Part shown: positions 38,141-51,395 of the stretch, one piece after another
Position numbering within the stretch: position 1 is the stretch's first letter
Layout: the number at the start of each line of letters is the position of its first letter
Source: Myxococcota bacterium
GTDB lineage: Bacteria; Myxococcota_A; UBA9160; UBA4427
Direction: 5' to 3'
Assembly (NCBI GenBank): GCA_965250285.1
Contig: OZ252299.1
Span: forward strand, 5,095,966-5,159,965
Length of the DNA: 64,000 nucleotides
The notes under the pieces: model-generated
What the model saw: only the letters and a program-made list of their open reading frames with translations
What the model was told of the DNA's origin: nothing
Databases searched by the model: none
Translations under genes and position numbers: made by a program

Positions 38141-39451
38141 TCAGAAGAGGCTGCCCGACCGCGCCCCCTTCTTGGAGTCGGGGGCCAGCGCGTCGAGCGC
38201 ATCCTTGATCGCCGCGACCTGGGCCTCATCCAGGCCATAGCGTGCGAGCGCACCCCAGGGCTGCATCTCGATGCCGTGGGGCGTGTCGCCCTCGAGCGCG
38301 ACGATCAGAAAGGCCATGCGATCGCCGATGCGGAGCAGCGCGGGTCGCAGCTCGGTCTCGAGGTCGTAGGGCGGCTTCGCGTCGTCGTCGGCTTCGACCC
38401 GTTGCTGGATCGCCTTGGCCGCTTCGATCTGTGTCCGGTAGAAGGCGCGCACCCTGGTCTCGTCGGGGGGCGCTACGCCCTGGCGCGCCGCTTCGGCCGA
38501 GACGGCACGCCAGGCCGCGTCGAGCACGACCGCTTCGCGCTCGGGCACGGCGATCGGTAGATCGTGCGCGCGCTTGTAGAGCGCGACGTACGGCATCAGC
38601 GCGAGCCGCTCGTCGACGGCGGCGACGATGGCTGCGACGACGCTCGCATAGGCGTCGACCGGGTCGATGCCGAGTTCGTTCTGCTGCAGATCGAGCAGAG
38701 CGCGTCGCCCGCGCGGCGTTTCGAGCCAGGCATCGAGCTCGGCCAACAGCTCGGTCTGGCCGGGTGCGGCGAATACGGCCTTGCGGTCGAGGGTGAGCGG
38801 GCCGAGCTGTAGCCAGTCGGGATGATCATCGCGCCAGACCGGCGACTCGCGCGTGTCGGTCACGACGGCGTCGACCTCGTCGCGCGCGAGCAGGCCGGGC
38901 ACGGCCTCGTTGGGGCTGGTCGGCACGATCTCGGCCTTCGGGAAGCGTTCACGGGCCACGCGTTCGAGATGTCCACCGCGGTTCACGGCGATGCGGCGCT
39001 TCGCCGAGTTCAGATCACCGAGGGTGAGCTTCGGTGAAGAGACGAGCACGACCGCACTCGTCCGCGCGAGCGGCACGCTGAAGGTGCCGACGACGGAGCG
39101 ATCGGGCCGCACGGTGATGCCGCTCGCCGCGAGATCGAAGCGGCCCGCGCGGGCGTCTTCGATCAGCTCCGGCCAGGTGAACCGCACCCATTCGATGCGT
39201 CGTCCGGTCGCGCGCGACCAGCTCCGCAGCAGCTCCGGCGAGAAGCCGCGTGGCTTCTCGGCGTTCTCGGGCCAGATGCTGAACGGGGCGTAGTCGCCGC
39301 TCGTCGCGACGCGCACGGTCTCGCTCGCGGCCGGCTCGGGTGAAGCGTTCGGCCGAGCCCCGCAGGCGAACAGCCAGATCGCGGTGAGCGCGACCAGGCT
39401 GCAGGCCAGGCGGCGCGAGGCGAACCCAGCATGCGTCGGGTGTGTCTTCAT
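38141..39451 (-). CDS. Lipoprotein fusing a PheC-like (family-3 solute-binding/cyclohexadienyl dehydratase) domain to an AroQ chorismate mutase domain
   Basis: Lipobox LFACG. The N-terminal domain has TSGDYAPFS...RFDLAASGITV...FSVPL. The C-terminal ~150 aa has ERLALMPYVALYKRAHDLPIAVPEREAVVLD, typical of AroQ class chorismate mutase. Confidence 0.7.
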   Translation of the reverse strand: MKTHPTHAGFASRRLACSLVALTAIWLFACGARPNASPEPAASETVRVATSGDYAPFSIWPENAEKPRGFSPELLRSWSRATGRRIEWVRFTWPELIEDARAGRFDLAASGITVRPDRSVVGTFSVPLARTSAVVLVSSPKLTLGDLNSAKRRIAVNRGGHLERVARERFPKAEIVPTSPNEAVPGLLARDEVDAVVTDTRESPVWRDDHPDWLQLGPLTLDRKAVFAAPGQTELLAELDAWLETPRGRRALLDLQQNELGIDPVDAYASVVAAIVAAVDERLALMPYVALYKRAHDLPIAVPEREAVVLDAAWRAVSAEAARQGVAPPDETRVRAFYRTQIEAAKAIQQRVEADDDAKPPYDLETELRPALLRIGDRMAFLIVALEGDTPHGIEMQPWGALARYGLDEAQVAAIKDALDALAPDSKKGARSGSLF

Positions 39452-39600
39452 ACGGGGGATCTTAGGCGCTGCGGCTCGGGGTTTCGCCCACCCGCGCCCC
39501 ATCGAAGCCGCATGATTCGCCGGGTCCCACCCGCAATGAAGGCATCGCGATCGTGGCGGAATTCGGTGTGAGATGCCGAATTCGGGCGGTTCGCGGCTGA

Positions 39601-39629
39601 TTGACCCTCTTCGTCAGTTCGCGTAAGAT
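39601..39629 (+). promoter_or_regulatory. Near-consensus sigma-70-type promoter of the cold-shock-domain gene
   Basis: TTGACC (39601-39606), a 17-nt spacer, then TAAGAT (39624-39629). This implies a leader of about 100 nt. Palindromes CGGAATTCGG (39557-39566) and CCGAATTCGG (39576-39585) lie just upstream. Confidence 0.55.
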
Positions 39630-44578: not shown

Positions 44579-45973
44579 TCAGGATTCGTCGCGACGGATC
44601 GCGCGCTCGAACGCGTCGAACAGCGCGCTGCGAATCTGCGCCTTGTCCGCGCGTCCGTAGATCTCGCGGAACGCCTTGAGCGGGATGATGCCCTTCGCCA
44701 TCGATCGATGCCCGCCGCCAACCCCGAGACCCTCGACCACGGCGCGCACCACCTCGCCCGCAGCACGGACGTAGCCGACGTTGCGCACCGAGAAGACGAG
44801 GTTCGGTCCCACGGTGCCGACGGCAACGGCCCACTCGGCTCCTTCGGCCTGCAGCGCCATGTCGGCGACCTGCGGGATCACGTCTTCGCGCACGCGACCG
44901 AGCACGAGCATGTGGATGCCGTCGCGTACCTCGGCCTTGGCGAGCGCGCGGCCCAGCGCTCGCAAGCCATCGAGCGGCAGCGCCGGCCGCTCGATGCGGC
45001 GCAGCAGCGCCGGACTGTGCGCTGCGTGGAGATAGGCGAAGGAGAGCATGTCGCGGCGGCCGGTCTCGCGACCGAGGTACTGCGTGTCGCTCTTGATGCC
45101 GTAGAGCAGGGCCGTCGCCAGGCGCGGCCCGAGCTCGGCCCCGACCGCCTGCAGGTACTCGGTAAAGATGGTTGCGGTCGCCCCGTACGATGTTCGGATG
45201 TCCTTGATCGTCGACTCGTAGCCCGTGCGCTCGGGATGATGGTCGATCACCGCGTCGATCTGCTTCACGCGCTCGGGTGCGTTCTCGCCGAAGACGTTCG
45301 GTTGCACGTCGACGAGCACGAGCCCGTCCATTTCTTCGAGCTCTTCCGGCGTGATGACGCGAATCTCGATGCCGAGTGCGTCGGCCAGGGCCCGGTTCTC
45401 GGGTCGCTGCACCTCGCCGAACGAGATGAGCGGCGCGGTCGTACGCTTTCGGCCGAGCAGCGATCGCAGCGCATAGCCGCTCGCGATGCCGTCGGGATCG
45501 GGGTCGGGCTGGAGCAGGATCCCCACCTTCTCTCGCGCGTCGAGCAGGCGTCGCAGCTCGACGACGCGACGCAGATTCGCGAGATGGTCGAACTGGTCGT
45601 CGATGTCGTCGCGGATCAGCGTCTTCAGGCCGCAGAGGCGCAGACGCGAGTGATCGGGGAGGTCGTCGTCGGAGGTGCCGTCCGAGAGGACGAGCACCGA
45701 GGCGTCGGGGCTCGCCTTCGCGAGCTCGCGCACGGCCGAGCGCAGCCACGGGCCGTCGTCGCTCGCGAGCGCCACGTCGTCACCCGGCTGGATCTCGAGC
45801 TTCGCGAAGGCGTCCTCGGTGAGTCCGCCCTGGAGCATCTTGAAGCCGGGGGGCCGCGCGCGGCCATCTTCTTCACGCGGGACCCAGGTCAGGATCTCGC
45901 TCTCGTCGGCGCCGATCCGGGCCCAGAGCCGGGCGTTGTCCGCCCCGTCGCAGACGATGATCCGCCGTCCCAC
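44579..45973 (-). CDS. DHH/DHHA1-family phosphoesterase (NrnA-like) with an extra N-terminal domain
   Basis: Contains [14 protein letters not shown] (DHH motif) and the GGGH DHHA1 motif ([12 protein letters not shown]). The N-terminal ~150 aa are unassigned. Confidence 0.8.
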
Positions 45974-46514
45974 TTGCTTCCCCGTCTCTCTCTTCGGTCT
46001 CGTCGCTCTGGCCGGTCTCAGTGCTCGTGGCGCGCTTCGGGCGCGGCACGTGCGCTCCTCGACCGTGCGCCCCGCTGCACGGTGCCCCCTTCGAACGCTC
46101 GATCGCCCGGCCGTGCGTCGACCACCCGGTGGGTCGAATCGGCCGCTCGGTGACGGCGTCGTCGAGAGCGGCGGGAGTCTAGCATCTCACCCCCACAGGC
46201 CCGCGCGAGTCGGTGGCTGCTTGGGACACACCTCGAGTCGACGTCGAGCGCGCCTCGGGCCCCGTGATCGGCATCGCTGCCGGGCCGTCGCCGATCTGTC
46301 GCACGCTGGCGTCACCGGGCTACCCCGGCATCGCGTCTGCGTGCCGCACGACTTGCTCGGATGCCTCTGCCCGGCCTGCGCGATGTCCGCTATCCAATGG
46401 TTCGGGGGTGAGGGGGCGTGCGCGAATGAGGCTGCTCTTCATGCGGACGGATCGGTTCGGGGCCCACGCCGGCGTCGACGCCCATGCCCATGCCCACGCG
46501 CGAAGGGGCGACAC

Positions 46515-47756
46515 ATGAATGGTCCGCCCCGCATCATTCAAGATCCTGCAGATAGCCCCGACGAGGAGCTCGTCGAGCTCCCGATCGAGGACGAGTTCGA
46601 CCTGCATCACTTCCGACCCGAGGAGCGGCTCGAGATGCTCGAGGGCTATCTCGAGGCCGCCAGCGAGCGTGGCTTCGATGAGGTCCGCATCATCCATGGC
46701 CGCGGCCGCGGCGTCGCGCGCGCCGAGGTCCAGGCCTTCCTCGAGGACGATCCGCGCGTCGTCTCGAGCGTCGAAGCCGAGCCCGGTCGAGGCGGTTGGG
46801 GCGCGACGCTCGCCCGACTCGATGCATGTGCCGAGCCCGACCGCGTCGATGGCCAACCCGTCTTCGTCGGCGACATCCAGGGCTGCGCGCAGGAGTTCGA
46901 AGAGCTGCTCGCGCGCGTCGAGCGCGCCTTCGGGAGCGAATACCGCCTCTACGTGGCTGGAGACGCCATCAATCGGGGTCACCACAATCTGCAGGTGCTC
47001 GAGCGCATCCGCGAGCGCGTCGAGCTCGGACGCGGCGAGATGGTGCTCGGAAACCACGAGATCCACATGCTGCGTGTGGCCCTCGAGCTGCAGGAGCCCG
47101 ACGCGAACCACACGTTTCACGATGTGCTCGAGTCGCGGGAGCGAGACGATTGGGTTCGCTGGGTGCTCGGGCGCCCGCTCGCCGCCCACGGCTGGGTCAG
47201 GGGCGCGCGCTGGGTCATGGTGCACGCATCGGTGCATCCCGACTGGGGTTGGGCCGACGCGATTCGCGCCTCGCGTCGCGTCGAGCGGGTGCTGTCGTCG
47301 CCCGACGCCGCCGCCGTCGGCGATCTGCTCGCGCTTCGGCCCCAGGAGCTGCCGCGACGGGGCAGCCCGCGCGATCTGCTCGGGCGCATGACCAGCGCCC
47401 GGGTCGTGAAGGGGGCGAGATCGCGCTGGTCGAGTCGCCAGCCGAGCGAGGTCGAGGGCGAGCCGTGGCACGAGGTCTGGCAATCGCGTGGCCACGACTA
47501 CGGCGTCATCTACGGCCACTGGGCCACCCAGGGCCTGCGGGTCGTGCCCGGCCTGCGTGGCCTCGACTCGGGCTGCATCCACCATGGCCGGCGGGGCGTC
47601 GGGCACCTGAGCGGCTGGGTGCCCCAGGTGCGGCCCGGCGAACCGAGCCGGGGCTTCGACACGCCGGATGATGACGTCTGGCAGGTGCGCGCCCGGTATC
47701 GCCGCAATGGACGCCGGCATCGCAACCGGGCGCCCGTGGCCGCGATCGGCGGCTGA
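46515..47756 (+). CDS. Smr-domain / ApaH-like metallophosphoesterase fusion protein
   Basis: Residues ~25-105 are Smr (FDLHHF...VRIIHGRGRGVARAEV). From residue ~113 it is ApaH-like (VFVGDIQGC, GDAINRG, VLGNHEIHML, VHASV). The real start is ATG 46515 inside a 693-aa track ORF. Confidence 0.75.
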   Translation: MNGPPRIIQDPADSPDEELVELPIEDEFDLHHFRPEERLEMLEGYLEAASERGFDEVRIIHGRGRGVARAEVQAFLEDDPRVVSSVEAEPGRGGWGATLARLDACAEPDRVDGQPVFVGDIQGCAQEFEELLARVERAFGSEYRLYVAGDAINRGHHNLQVLERIRERVELGRGEMVLGNHEIHMLRVALELQEPDANHTFHDVLESRERDDWVRWVLGRPLAAHGWVRGARWVMVHASVHPDWGWADAIRASRRVERVLSSPDAAAVGDLLALRPQELPRRGSPRDLLGRMTSARVVKGARSRWSSRQPSEVEGEPWHEVWQSRGHDYGVIYGHWATQGLRVVPGLRGLDSGCIHHGRRGVGHLSGWVPQVRPGEPSRGFDTPDDDVWQVRARYRRNGRRHRNRAPVAAIGG

Positions 47757-47869
47757 CGGGCCCGATGCCGCTTGCGGGGCCGGGCTCGATTGCCCCGCGG
47801 GTCACCCTCTCGGCCAGCTGACGTGGGTTAGACTCCCCGCCCCGTGCGCGCCGAGCGCCATTTTCAGCC

Positions 47870-48154
47870 ATGGAGCAGAGCGCCATGCCCATCGTCCTGA
47901 TCCCCACTGCGTATCGTGGCCCTACGAAGGGCGTCGCCGAGGTCGAGGTGGCGGCCGGCTCGGCGCGCGCCTGTCTCGAGGCAGTCGACGCCGAGCACCC
48001 CGGCTTCGGTGACCTGGTTTTCGACAAGGAAGGCGGGCTCCACCGCTTCGTGACGCTCTTCATCAACGGCGACCAGCTCGACGACGCGCCGCTCGACCAG
48101 AGCGTCGGCGAAGCCGACCGCCTCGAGGTGCTCGCGGCGATCGCCGGGGGCTGA
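47870..48154 (+). CDS. MoaD/ThiS-family ubiquitin-like sulfur carrier (C-terminal Gly-Gly)
   Basis: About 90 aa, ending ...LEVLAAIAGG. Contains FINGDQL, as in MoaD/ThiS. An alternative start at ATG 47885 (MPIVLIP) has a better GGAG upstream. Confidence 0.7.
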   Translation: MEQSAMPIVLIPTAYRGPTKGVAEVEVAAGSARACLEAVDAEHPGFGDLVFDKEGGLHRFVTLFINGDQLDDAPLDQSVGEADRLEVLAAIAGG

Positions 48155-48300
48155 CCTACGCCCTGTGCGTTGTGCCCGGGCTGGGTTATCCAATACAGGC
48201 TCGGCGCAGGGCGCAGCCCGCGGCTCGCCGATCTCACATCCGGCCTCGTGAACGACGCCGGCACGAATCTCCAACCCGATCCTTGGAAGGAGCGCATCCC

Positions 48301-50037
48301 ATGGCAGGACCCGAAGGCGACCAGCTGATCTACGTCGACATGACGAACCAGACCGTTGAGTTGAAGCCCTTCCCCGACGAGTGGAAGCTGCTCGGCGGGC
48401 GCGGTCTCTCGGCGAAGATCCTGCTGCAGGAATGCGATCCGACCTGTGATCCGCTCGGCCCCGACAACGTGCTCGTGATGGCGCCCGGTGTGCTCTCGGG
48501 CACCACCGCCCCGACCTCGGGCCGCATCTCGATCGGCGGCAAGAGCCCGCTGACGAACGGCATCAAGGAAGCCAATGCCGGTGGCAATCCGGGCCAGGAT
48601 CTCATGAAGCTCGGCTACCGAGCGATCGTCGTGAAGGGTCAGCCTGCCGATGCCGAGAAGCGCTACGGCCTGCGTGTCGACGTGGGCAAGACGCCCGAGA
48701 TCGTCTCCGCAGACGAAGAGAAGGGCATGTGGAACTACGCCCTCTGCGCGAAGCTGCTCGAAGGCGAGAGCAAGAACGCCAGCGTGATCTCGATCGGTCC
48801 CGCCGGTGAGCTCAAGCTCTCGGGCGCCTCGGTCGCGTGCACCGACCAGGACAAGGAGCGCCGCCCGGCACGCCATGCTGCGCGCGGTGGTCTCGGCGCC
48901 GTGATGGGCTCGAAGGGCCTCAAGTACGTGCTGGTCGACCCGGGCAAGTCCAAGACCCGCTCGCCCGCAGCCACGAAGGACTTCACGACCCACACGAAGC
49001 AGTACTCGAAGGAGTACCTCGACGGTCCCCAGATGATGGGCAAGGGTACCGCCAACGTCGTGCCGGTGGCGAACATGCTCCACACGTTCGTCTACAAGAA
49101 CCGCACCGAGGGTCAGAGCCCCGACGCGCACGACCTGAGCGGTGAGCGCATCCACGAGAACTTCGAAGAGCGCGGTGGCGGCATGCACAACTGCATGACC
49201 GGCTGCATCGTGCGCTGCTCGAACGTCGTGCACGATCCCGACGGCAACTACAAGACGAGCGCGCTCGAGTTCGAGACGCTCACGCTGCTGGGCGCTTCCT
49301 GCGCGATCAAGACCTACGACGAGGTCGCCGAGCTCGATCGCCTGTGCGACGAGATCGGCCTCGATACGATCGAGACCGGCGCGGCCATCGCGATCCTGAT
49401 GGATTCGGGCGGCATGGAGTGGGGCGACTCGACCGGTGCGATGAACGTGCTGAAGGAGATCGCCGAGGGCACCGAGCTCGGTCGCGCGATCGGCAACGGT
49501 GCGGTCGCCACCGGCAAGTACCGCAAGCACGACCGCGTGCCCCACGCGCGCGGTCAGGCGATCCCGGCCTGGGATCCGCGGCCGCTCAAGGCCACGGGTG
49601 TCACCTACTGCACTTCGGCCATGGGAGCGGATCACACCGCGGGACTGATCGTCAACCCGGGCATGCAGCCGCCCGAGTTCGCCCAGGCGAGCCAGGAGGT
49701 GCAGCTCGTCAACGCGGTGTGTGACAGCTCGGGGTTCTGCCAGTTCCTCGGCCCCACCCTCGACGACATCCGTGCCTACTACTCGCTGCTGTACGGCGAG
49801 GAGATCTCGCGCGAGCAGATCGCCGACCAGGGCTGGCAGATCATGCTCGACGAGTGGGAGTTCAACGAGAAGGCGGGCTGGAAGGCCGAAGACGACGTGC
49901 TTTCGGATCCGCTCGTGAACGAGGGCATCGGCCCCGACAACGTCATGAAGTTCGACGTCGAGCCCGACATCATCGCGCAGGCGAAGCAGCGCTTCCCGAT
50001 CCGCGACGAGCTCTTCGTGACGAAGGCGTCGGGCTGA
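48301..50037 (+). CDS. Aldehyde:ferredoxin oxidoreductase family (tungsto/molybdopterin) enzyme
   Basis: 578 aa. The AFOR N-terminal pattern reads LLGGRGLSAKILL...GRISIGGKSPLTNGIKEANAGG, followed by the C-terminal AFOR domain. The start is at ATG 48301 behind GGAAGGAG. Confidence 0.9.
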   Translation: MAGPEGDQLIYVDMTNQTVELKPFPDEWKLLGGRGLSAKILLQECDPTCDPLGPDNVLVMAPGVLSGTTAPTSGRISIGGKSPLTNGIKEANAGGNPGQDLMKLGYRAIVVKGQPADAEKRYGLRVDVGKTPEIVSADEEKGMWNYALCAKLLEGESKNASVISIGPAGELKLSGASVACTDQDKERRPARHAARGGLGAVMGSKGLKYVLVDPGKSKTRSPAATKDFTTHTKQYSKEYLDGPQMMGKGTANVVPVANMLHTFVYKNRTEGQSPDAHDLSGERIHENFEERGGGMHNCMTGCIVRCSNVVHDPDGNYKTSALEFETLTLLGASCAIKTYDEVAELDRLCDEIGLDTIETGAAIAILMDSGGMEWGDSTGAMNVLKEIAEGTELGRAIGNGAVATGKYRKHDRVPHARGQAIPAWDPRPLKATGVTYCTSAMGADHTAGLIVNPGMQPPEFAQASQEVQLVNAVCDSSGFCQFLGPTLDDIRAYYSLLYGEEISREQIADQGWQIMLDEWEFNEKAGWKAEDDVLSDPLVNEGIGPDNVMKFDVEPDIIAQAKQRFPIRDELFVTKASG

Positions 50038-50156
50038 CGCCGATCACGCACTCGACGAAACCGTGACGGGCAGGGGGGCGACCCCCTGCCCGTTTGTCGT
50101 TCGAGTCGCGGAGGACCGAACATGCGCGATCGGCGCATGAGAGAGGAGACGGCCCC

Positions 50157-51395
50157 ATGCGCGACGTGCGCATGAAGGGGTTCGCCGAGCGGGCGGACGT
50201 CGAAGAGGTCGACGAATTCCTCGCGTCGCACACGGGCGCGCTCGCCGCCGAGTCGGTCCCGTTGCTCGCGTGCGTGGGGCGCGTCCTCGCCGTCGACGTG
50301 ACCGCGCGCGTCGACGTGCCGGGGTTCCGACGATCGGCGATGGACGGCTACGCCGTGCGCGGCGAAGAGACCTTCGGTGCGAGCGCGTACGATCCGATTG
50401 CGCTCGCGATCGTCGGTCTGTCGTTGCCGGGTTCGCCTCATGACGGTGCGCTCGCACCCGGCCGGGCCGTGCGCATCATGACGGGCGCGCCCGTACCGGA
50501 GGGCGCCGATGCGGTCGTGATGGCCGAGGTGTGCGAGGAGCGCGACGGTCGCGTCGAGATCACCGAGCCGGTTGCGCCCACCAAGAACGTCGGCGTGATC
50601 GGCGAGGACATACGAAGCGGTGATGTGGTGCTGCGCGCGGGCCGCCGACTGCGCCCGCAGGATGCCGGGTTGCTCTCGTCGATCGGCGCTTCGATGGTCT
50701 CGTGTGTTCGCCGCCCGCGCGTGCGGCTGATCGTGACCGGCGACGAGCTGCTCGAAGCGGGGAGCACGCCGTCGGGCTCGCACATCGTCGACAGCAACTC
50801 GGTGGTCCTGCGCGCCCTGGTGGCACGCGACGGCGGCGATGCGCTGCCGTTCGAGATCCTGCCCGACGTGCCGGAGCGCATTCGCGACGCGCTCTGCGAC
50901 GCCGACGCCGACGTCGTGCTCGTATCGGGCGGCAGCTCGGTCGGGCAGGAGGATCACGCGCCGCGCCTGCTGGCCGAGGTCGGCGAGCTCGACTTCCACG
51001 GCATCTCGATGCGCCCGTCGAGCCCGACGGGCGTCGGCCGCATCGGCGATACGTTCGTCTTCTTGTTGCCGGGCAACCCGGTCAGCTGTCTCGCCGCCTA
51101 CGAGTTCTTTGCCGGACCGACATTGCGCGCGCTCGGGGGGCGTCCGCGACGCTGGCCGCATCGGCGCCTCGAGCTGCCGCTCGGCCGCAAGATCGCGTCG
51201 GCCATCGGGCGCACCGACTACGTTCGGGTCGCGGTCGAAGACGGTCGAGCGATCCCGCTCGCCACATCGGGCGCCTCGATCCTGTCGTCGACGGTGCGTG
51301 CTGCGGGTGCCGTGATCGTGCCGCGCGAGCTCGAAGGGATGCCAGAGGGGGCCGTGGTCGAGGTGCTGGCCTACGACGAGGACGCAGAGGAATGA
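50157..51395 (+). CDS. moeA: Molybdopterin molybdenum/tungsten transferase MoeA
   Basis: Contains PGFRRSAMDGYAV, TGDEL and VSGGSSVGQEDH. The start is at MRDVRMKGF (ATG 50157). The stop overlaps the next ATG as ATGA. Confidence 0.9.
   Translation: MRDVRMKGFAERADVEEVDEFLASHTGALAAESVPLLACVGRVLAVDVTARVDVPGFRRSAMDGYAVRGEETFGASAYDPIALAIVGLSLPGSPHDGALAPGRAVRIMTGAPVPEGADAVVMAEVCEERDGRVEITEPVAPTKNVGVIGEDIRSGDVVLRAGRRLRPQDAGLLSSIGASMVSCVRRPRVRLIVTGDELLEAGSTPSGSHIVDSNSVVLRALVARDGGDALPFEILPDVPERIRDALCDADADVVLVSGGSSVGQEDHAPRLLAEVGELDFHGISMRPSSPTGVGRIGDTFVFLLPGNPVSCLAAYEFFAGPTLRALGGRPRRWPHRRLELPLGRKIASAIGRTDYVRVAVEDGRAIPLATSGASILSSTVRAAGAVIVPRELEGMPEGAVVEVLAYDEDAEE

Follow-up and report, generated by a model that had tools for sequence, protein, structure and literature searches.

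Two groups of described proteins stand closest to the gene considered here, namely the ApaH hydrolases and the Smr-domain endonucleases. ApaH cleaves dinucleoside tetraphosphates of the Np4A type symmetrically and also removes Np4 caps from RNA, leaving diphosphorylated RNA that enters 5'-end-dependent decay (PMC13010140). The Pseudomonas aeruginosa enzyme (PaApaH) splits diadenosine tetraphosphate (Ap4A) symmetrically with a Michaelis constant (KM) of 3.6 uM and a turnover number (kcat) of 5.7 per s; its first manganese ion (Mn1) is coordinated by D8, D37 and Q10, and a three-helix insertion, which builds the cleft for the second nucleoside, is specific to ApaH (PMC13505596). Smr proteins carrying DxH and HGxG motifs bind the interface of collided ribosomes and cleave messenger RNA (mRNA) (PMC10897456; bioRxiv 10.1101/2021.08.16.456513), and both motifs are often degenerate (DLR or lost) in MutS2 and SmrA (PMC10897456). 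In this study, we describe a gene at positions 46515-47756 of a window of 64,000 nucleotides (the whole stretch of DNA analysed) from a Myxococcota bacterium (assembly GCA_965250285.1, contig OZ252299.1, positions 5,095,966 to 5,159,965 of the forward strand), in which an Smr domain and an ApaH-like domain are joined in one polypeptide.

Three bacterial Smr architectures have been described, and the present one is not among them (PMC10897456). Our literature search found no paper that mentions ApaH together with an Smr domain, and homologues of the fusion are named in the databases either 'Smr/MutS family protein' or 'bis(5'-nucleosyl)-tetraphosphatase'. The Smr-ApaH architecture appears not to have been described previously. 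Comparable designs are found in eukaryotes. In NONU-1/N4BP2-type proteins an Smr endonuclease is likewise joined covalently to an enzyme acting on RNA termini (bioRxiv 10.1101/674358), but the partners there are a kinase of the polynucleotide kinase (PNK) clade and a 2H cyclic phosphoesterase, whereas the bacterial protein described here has a metallophosphoesterase of the ApaH clade as its partner and is devoid of CUE and ubiquitin-binding domains. In trypanosomes, the ApaH-family domain of ALPH1 has been recruited to mRNA decay via extra regions, with diphosphate RNA as the product (PMC13069679); ALPH1, however, is a member of the eukaryotic ALPH branch without an Smr domain, and its relative 2qjc matches the fusion protein less well than bacterial ApaH does.

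Results

The gene is a single frame of 413 codons plus TGA, uninterrupted from the ATG at 46515 to the TGA ending at 47756, as a first-pass annotation made from the DNA letters had described. Both domains which that annotation had recognized by their motifs were recovered with profile hidden Markov models. Pfam Smr PF01713 scored 67.9 bits against a cut-off of 25.7 (E 8.4e-19, residues 29-102), Pfam Metallophos scored 33.6 bits against 21.5, and NCBIfam ApaH NF001204 matched residues 116-358 at E 3.2e-43. Among solved structures, ApaH chains were matched at E 1.6e-23, and the Smr part used alone as query matched the MutS2 Smr domain 2zqe at E 5e-9. The quoted Smr and ApaH-like motifs and the CAG codon at 46878-46880 all lie where they had been placed. 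The parts of the protein are as follows.

46515..47756, plus strand: Smr-ApaH-like fusion gene (reading frame in the sequence; both Pfam domains; full-length homologues P0002-P0010)
46599..46820, plus strand: Smr domain, residues 29-102 (PF01713; 2zqe)
46599..46607, plus strand: DxH motif D29-L30-H31, within FDLHHF, the catalytic signature of nuclease-active Smr domains (sequence; role from PMC10897456)
46695..46706, plus strand: HGxG motif H61-G62-R63-G64, within VRIIHGRGRG, the RNA-binding loop of Smr (sequence)
46821..46853, plus strand: linker, residues 103-113 (alignment A1; junctions in related loci; AlphaFold2 predicted local distance difference test, pLDDT, 79-85)
46860..47702, plus strand: ApaH-like binuclear metallophosphoesterase domain, residues 116-396 (NF001204; ApaH in the PDB; Foldseek; clade alignment)

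The identity of the two parts and the history of their fusion are close to certain. A scan of one genome per species gave 211 relatives of the ApaH-like part, of which the best 80 were kept; nearly all of these loci are from metagenome-assembled genomes (MAGs) labelled Myxococcota, Deltaproteobacteria or Spirochaetaceae, and M. xanthus, whose ApaH has been characterised biochemically, is not among them. In 20 of the 80, the ApaH-like gene is immediately preceded, on its own strand, by an Smr open reading frame (ORF), which is a separate gene in 19 and part of an in-frame fusion in one (L001, 74% identical to the window). In the 19 two-gene loci the Smr stop is followed by the ApaH-like start within approximately 0-110 nt or overlaps it (GTGA, TGATG, TTGA). 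The stand-alone upstream Smr gene of these relatives encodes approximately 100-135 aa, and in P0122, where the genes were called, a 112-aa Smr gene precedes a 288-aa Metallophos gene. In the two-gene relatives, the counterpart of the fusion's linker is the C-terminal tail of Smr together with the N-terminus of ApaH. When the ApaH-like domains were arranged in a neighbour-joining tree, a single clade, placed within operon-type loci, comprised the window, P0002-P0008 and L001. As read from these sequences, the comparison shows that the fusion arose from an adjacent, frequently translationally coupled smr-apaH pair through loss of the stop codon and the spacer, making the pair and its fused form a Rosetta-stone case.

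The taxonomic labels of these records deserve some caution. MAG records with the Myxococcota-type block are labelled Spirochaetaceae or Spirochaetales (L001, L010, L015, L016, L071 and others) or Actinomycetota (P0004), and these labels probably reflect bin-level taxonomy and not the real distribution.

The possibility that two genes were falsely joined by an assembly error or a frameshift might be raised because a linked Smr is a separate gene at 19 of the 20 species-level loci that have one. However, P0002-P0008, L001 and L086 all share this in-frame junction at 62-80% identity, although they were obtained from independent samples with independent assemblers, and the coding signature in guanine-cytosine (GC) content runs unbroken across the junction; we find an artefact of this type hardly conceivable. 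L086, an independent 36.8-kb metagenome contig, carries the fusion with identical gene order. Thus the two-domain protein is not split by a stop or a frameshift within its lineage, in agreement with what the first-pass annotation had proposed.

The fusion is rare, since a library of 50%-identity representatives covering 1.84 billion proteins contained only one full-length two-domain representative. Two more fusions were placed elsewhere in the neighbour-joining tree: P0009 joins another set of operon-type loci, and P0010 falls outside both groups, among stand-alone sequences. Each is a single contig, and further independent fusions (P0009, perhaps P0010) are likely on the tree but not secure. 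Two other candidates, P0224 (436 aa) and P0247 (353 aa), were rejected, their N-termini being low-complexity read-through that looks like mis-called ORFs. In P0204 (537 aa), the GDVQGC ApaH-like domain of the clade is followed by a C-terminal extension of approximately 200 aa with a sulfotransferase-like P-loop (GLPRSGTS); judged by its sequence, this is another undescribed ApaH fusion.

The window has a GC content of 69% and mechanical ORFs are plentiful in it, so that ORF length alone is no proof of coding; the assignment of 46515-47756 as coding was therefore based on the matches to Pfam, NCBIfam and PDB entries. A 466-aa antisense ORF at 46320-47720 on the minus strand, overlapping the whole fusion gene, has no coding GC signature and is a high-GC artefact. 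Antisense frames of this kind have also found their way into some database proteins (P0224, P0247). The start is preceded by one further feature.

46502..46508, plus strand: Shine-Dalgarno-like GAAGGGG, 6 nt before the ATG (read from the sequence)

This site supports the start at 46515, as do the onset of the coding pattern at that position (GC at codon positions 1/2/3 of 0.82/0.45/0.79 in the gene vs 0.75/0.70/0.61 in 46383-46514) and the N-termini of several homologues, which line up with M1 in alignment A1.

With regard to the Smr half, the HGxG loop continues as H61-G62-R63-G64-R65-G66, and DLH, HG[RK]GxG and GGWGAT are kept in all 20 Smr ORFs of the loci described above. A search with the Smr part only returned 81 small stand-alone Smr proteins of approximately 60-145 aa (a few of them truncated) at 45-65% identity; all 81 have DLH and GGWGAT, and nearly all have the HG[RK]GxG loop. 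The Smr half therefore looks catalytically competent as far as its motifs can tell, with the DLH and HGxG of the SmrB/Cue2/NONU-1 type and not a DLR or degenerate form. It shares with those proteins the intact motifs and the design of a small single Smr domain, but differs in that the residue after DLH is variable rather than Gly. The N-terminal '--xxxa' helix with which SmrB hooks uS2 was sought in the fusion protein sequence and none was found; only 28 mostly acidic residues precede DLH. The NCBIfam SmrB model gave 11 bits against a cut-off of 128 (E 0.25), which places the domain outside the SmrB clade by that measure, while SmrA scored E 3e-4 and MutS2 E 1e-15. In sequence, the domain is nearer to the MutS2 type than to SmrA or SmrB.

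The best sequence and structure match for residues 25-102 is the Smr domain of MutS2 (Thermus thermophilus 2zqe, Bacillus subtilis 7qv3), including the C-terminal motif GGxG(A/V)T. The MutS core, clamp, ATPase and KOW domains belong to MutS2, and the fusion is without them; only the last 79 positions of the MutS2 model TIGR01069 match, with 57 bits against a cut-off of 400. It might be argued from the MutS2 C-terminal domains being the closest solved and NCBIfam relatives, and from database names such as 'DNA-nicking Smr family endonuclease', that the protein is a DNA-nicking enzyme of the MutS2 type whose phosphoesterase cleans DNA ends or answers Ap4A made upon damage. The current view of MutS2 itself, however, is that it serves ribosome rescue, and its Smr domain typically has no DxH (PMC10897456); MutS2 of B. 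subtilis and T. thermophilus has DLR, whereas the fusion has DLH. There are also no DNA-repair genes in the conserved neighbourhood, and we consider a DNA-directed role very unlikely.

With regard to the ApaH-like half, the active-site residues, apart from Q122, which is treated below, each have a single counterpart in PaApaH and do not vary within the clade (alignment A1). They are listed here with their PaApaH equivalents.

46869..46886, plus strand: motif I GDIQGC, metal-1 ligands D120 (D8) and Q122, aligned with GDLQGC of P. aeruginosa ApaH 9t9n
46959..46979, plus strand: motif II GDAINRG, bridging metal ligand D150 (D37) and R154 (R41), from the alignment to PaApaH
47049..47060, plus strand: motif III GNHE, metal-2 ligand N180 (N65) and catalytic H181 (H66), from the alignment to PaApaH
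47223..47225, plus strand: metal-2 ligand H237 (H120), invariant in A1
47400..47402, plus strand: R296 (R185, essential for catalysis in PaApaH), invariant in A1
47517..47519, plus strand: metal-2 ligand H335 in GHWA (H228), from the alignment to PaApaH
47565..47591, plus strand: D351 (D245, essential in PaApaH), invariant in A1, and the clade-specific GCIHHGR, from the alignment

An AlphaFold2 model of the two-domain chain reached a pLDDT of 89.4 and a predicted template modelling score (pTM) of 0.87. When this model was searched with Foldseek, the best match was Escherichia coli ApaH (9oly/9ojd), with a template modelling (TM) score of 0.82 over approximately 295 columns and approximately 24% identity; the T. 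brucei ApaH-like protein, the Pnkp phosphatase domain and lambda phosphatase were the runners-up. The model has helices at 246-260, 265-272 and 285-294, which we take to be the three-helix insertion that forms the second nucleoside cleft of ApaH. The fusion thus resembles ApaH (E. coli 9ojd/2dfj; P. aeruginosa 9t9n) in its PPP-type binuclear fold, metal ligands, GNH histidine, R185/D245 equivalents and predicted insertion. With all of these kept, the ApaH-like half looks catalytically competent, insofar as sequence and model allow. The basic C-terminal tail and the N-terminal Smr domain belong to the fusion, and no characterised ApaH has an Smr domain.

Motif I had drawn attention in the first-pass annotation, where GDIQG was set against the GDxHG form and Gln122 (CAG, 46878-46880) was thought to point to an altered, regulatory or non-catalytic site, or else to an error or a strain mutation should the orthologues uniformly carry His. 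The survey of homologues gave the opposite result. GD[IV]QGC is present in 119 of the 120 closest homologues, fused to Smr or not, and of 114 ApaH-family representatives (240 aa or longer) taken from the library of 1.84 billion cluster representatives, 91 had Gln and 22 had His at this position. PaApaH has GDxQGC exactly as in the fusion, and its Q10 binds Mn1 in an active enzyme. Because of these findings, by survey and by analogy with PaApaH, Gln122 is the usual metal-1 ligand in much of the ApaH family, and therefore neither an error, nor a strain mutation, nor the sign of a dead site. A sequencing error and an inactivating change were both ruled out on the same grounds, and within the family the motif is no anomaly. 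For annotation purposes, GDxQG is a normal, active ApaH motif that should not be flagged as degenerate.

The gene lies in a block of conserved order. On the minus strand of the window the order is NadE, a MaoC-like dehydratase, a pterin-4a-carbinolamine dehydratase and a DHH/DHHA1 protein, with an alpha/beta hydrolase gene on the plus strand, upstream of the fusion gene, between NadE and MaoC. On the plus strand from the fusion gene onward are Smr-ApaH-like, a ThiS/MoaD-like protein, an aldehyde:ferredoxin oxidoreductase and MoeA. Neighbour conservation was scored by targeted tblastn of the window's neighbours, which replaced a clustering of ORFs that was contaminated by antisense frames.

44579..45973, minus strand: DHH/DHHA1 phosphoesterase, divergent neighbour (Pfam; PDB NrnA/Rv2837c, E 9e-8)
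45974..46514, no strand assigned: divergent intergenic region, unusually long at 541 bp (islands at 46171-46184 and approximately 46365-46429)

The DHH/DHHA1 neighbour noted in the first-pass annotation is real: it has both Pfam domains and is the divergent neighbour in 74 of the 80 loci (64 of 70 if only loci with sufficient upstream sequence are counted), with a median identity of 72%. Its relation to the NrnA oligoribonuclease/pAp phosphatases, the closest solved relatives, was seen only at E ~9e-8, and no NCBIfam family claims it; 'nanoRNase-like', as it had been called, is a fair but weak label on these matches. The protein has an N-terminal extension of approximately 140 aa, and it is much better conserved than the ApaH-like neighbour, whose identity is approximately 45%.

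Between the DHH and ThiS genes, the slot is found in four states: ApaH-like only (60 of 80), Smr plus ApaH-like as two genes (19 of 80), the fusion, and Smr only. In the intergenic region, the island GCGGGAGTCTAGCA at 46171-46184 and that at approximately 46365-46429 show conservation within the fusion clade alone (L001, L086). The motif GANTCTAGCA was considered as a general regulatory element of the locus and rejected, being confined to the fusion clade. A scan for sigma-70 promoters and terminators gave nothing beyond chance, with no sigma-70 consensus match in 45974-46514; no Rfam family, transfer RNAs included, reached its gathering score across the 64-kb window; and the PADLOC anti-phage defence models assigned no family to the fusion protein or to the DHH neighbour.

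Downstream, at 47870-51395 on the plus strand, the ThiS/MoaD (SAMP-like) small protein, the aldehyde:ferredoxin oxidoreductase and MoeA keep their order in most related loci and have the appearance of a tungsto/molybdopterin enzyme cluster that has nothing to do with the fusion. Elsewhere in the window, a single ORF at 38141-39613 on the minus strand joins a periplasmic solute-binding domain (SBP_bac_3) with a type II chorismate mutase domain.

Discussion

In the explanation that we favour, the C-terminal domain would be a Mn2+-dependent hydrolase that cleaves dinucleoside tetraphosphate (Np4N) alarmones and removes Np4-type 5' caps from RNA, as ApaH does, and the N-terminal Smr domain would be a metal-independent endoribonuclease and ribosome-collision binder. 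Fusion or co-translation would hold the two activities at 1:1 and direct ApaH to the mRNAs or ribosomes on which Smr acts. When ribosomes stall on a transcript, it would then both suffer internal cleavage and lose the 5' cap that protects it; alternatively, the effect would be a local removal of Np4A. The cooperation of the two activities on the same transcripts is the weakest step of this explanation; it is plausible because of the conserved smr-apaH gene pair and the fusion or fusions, and we regard it as possible, somewhat short of an even chance. The stronger proposal, that Smr-ApaH is a dedicated module that physically couples the sensing of ribosome collisions to Np4-cap removal or Np4A destruction, seems doubtful to us.

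A number of observations weigh against the two domains acting together. The ApaH-like gene is alone in the slot at 60 of the 80 loci, while L088 (3001-3665) and L089 (2292-3709) have an Smr-only slot with no ApaH-like sequence (compare 45974-48154 of the window). In the MAG JAHEJV01 the ApaH-like gene is in the slot (L045) and Smr is elsewhere (L090), unlinked, and the related small Smr genes of other taxa do not adjoin ApaH. It follows from these arrangements that neither protein needs the other in cis. The related loci share the ten-gene block from NadE to MoeA in the same order, even though there is no functional relation among its genes, and since the whole block is conserved irrespective of function, adjacency alone is a weak sign of a shared role. 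The linker is poorly conserved in sequence among the fusions (A1). The Smr domain is without both the uS2 hook and the KOW domain, and ribosome recruitment is predicted at most. Moreover, for every member the functions are predictions from sequence.

Much of this would be expected if the fusion were neutral, that is, if two active enzymes of unrelated processes (Np4N clearance on the one hand, and ribosome rescue or nucleic-acid nicking on the other) had been joined by the loss of a stop without consequence. The slot with either gene alone, the unlinked genes of JAHEJV01, the synteny of the whole block and the variable linker all favour it, as do the TGATG, GTGA and TTGA overlaps, at which a small change in the junction could merge the ORFs, and the single full-length representative in the 50%-identity library. 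However, the fusion has been retained while its clade diverged to approximately 62% identity, fusion seems to have occurred separately in P0009 and perhaps P0010, translational coupling means that joint expression was selected, and the pTM of the whole chain suggests a packed rather than a beads-on-a-string arrangement, at least in the AlphaFold2 model. On balance we hold a neutral origin, the main rival of our explanation, to be unlikely, though it has to be taken seriously.

Cleavage by Smr leaves RNA ends with a 5'-OH and a 2',3'-cyclic phosphate. It is conceivable that the metallophosphoesterase acts on such ends as a 2',3'-cyclic phosphodiesterase/3'-phosphatase of the Pnkp type, healing RNA cut by Smr, and not on Np4N. 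The eukaryotic NONU-1 homologues fused to a PNK-type kinase and a 2H 2',3'-cyclic phosphoesterase would be a precedent (bioRxiv 10.1101/674358), and one of the closest structural matches is the C. thermocellum Pnkp phosphatase domain (4j6o, Foldseek E 6e-8), which is matched in sequence too (TIGR04075, E 2.3e-7; 4j6o). The nucleotide pocket is also unlike that of canonical ApaH. In an invariant GC[VI]HHGR (vs GC(V/C)WG), His takes the place of the Trp250 that stacks on adenine, and R183 of PaApaH subsite 2 is not conserved, the position being Ser or variable in the clade. The NCBIfam equivalog cut-offs were missed (NF001204, 148 vs 176; TIGR00668, 95 vs 222.85). Because of the sub-cut-off scores, the change of W250 to His and the loss of R183, the substrate of the ApaH-like domain may differ from Ap4A, which tells against our explanation.

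On the other hand, ApaH is far closer than Pnkp in both sequence and fold (E 1e-23, TM 0.82 vs approximately 0.6 for Pnkp), the ApaH-specific helical insertion is kept, and the Pnkp model TIGR04075 gave 29 bits against a cut-off of 750, well outside that family. The pocket changes are found also in the 60 loci without Smr and can therefore be no adaptation to Smr; they and the sub-cut-off scores are common to the whole clade and not specific to the fusion. We regard healing of Smr-cut ends as decidedly improbable. On profile scores, 'ApaH-like subfamily' is the right label for a match that is highly significant yet below threshold.

Returning to an ApaH-like hydrolase joined to an Smr endonuclease, it is the smr-apaH linkage that is the part worth following, the exchange of His for Gln being ordinary. 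If the activities are independent, the protein is simply a rare domain fusion in uncultured Myxococcota. If they do work together, Smr-ApaH would give bacteria an equivalent of the eukaryotic combination of no-go decay and decapping, and would for the first time connect dinucleoside-polyphosphate signalling with ribosome quality control by a mechanism. The control of Np4 caps by ApaH and collision-triggered cleavage by Smr are two recent fields that have so far been unconnected, and a translationally coupled smr-apaH pair, fused in at least one clade, provides the testable hypothesis that the two activities meet on one RNA.

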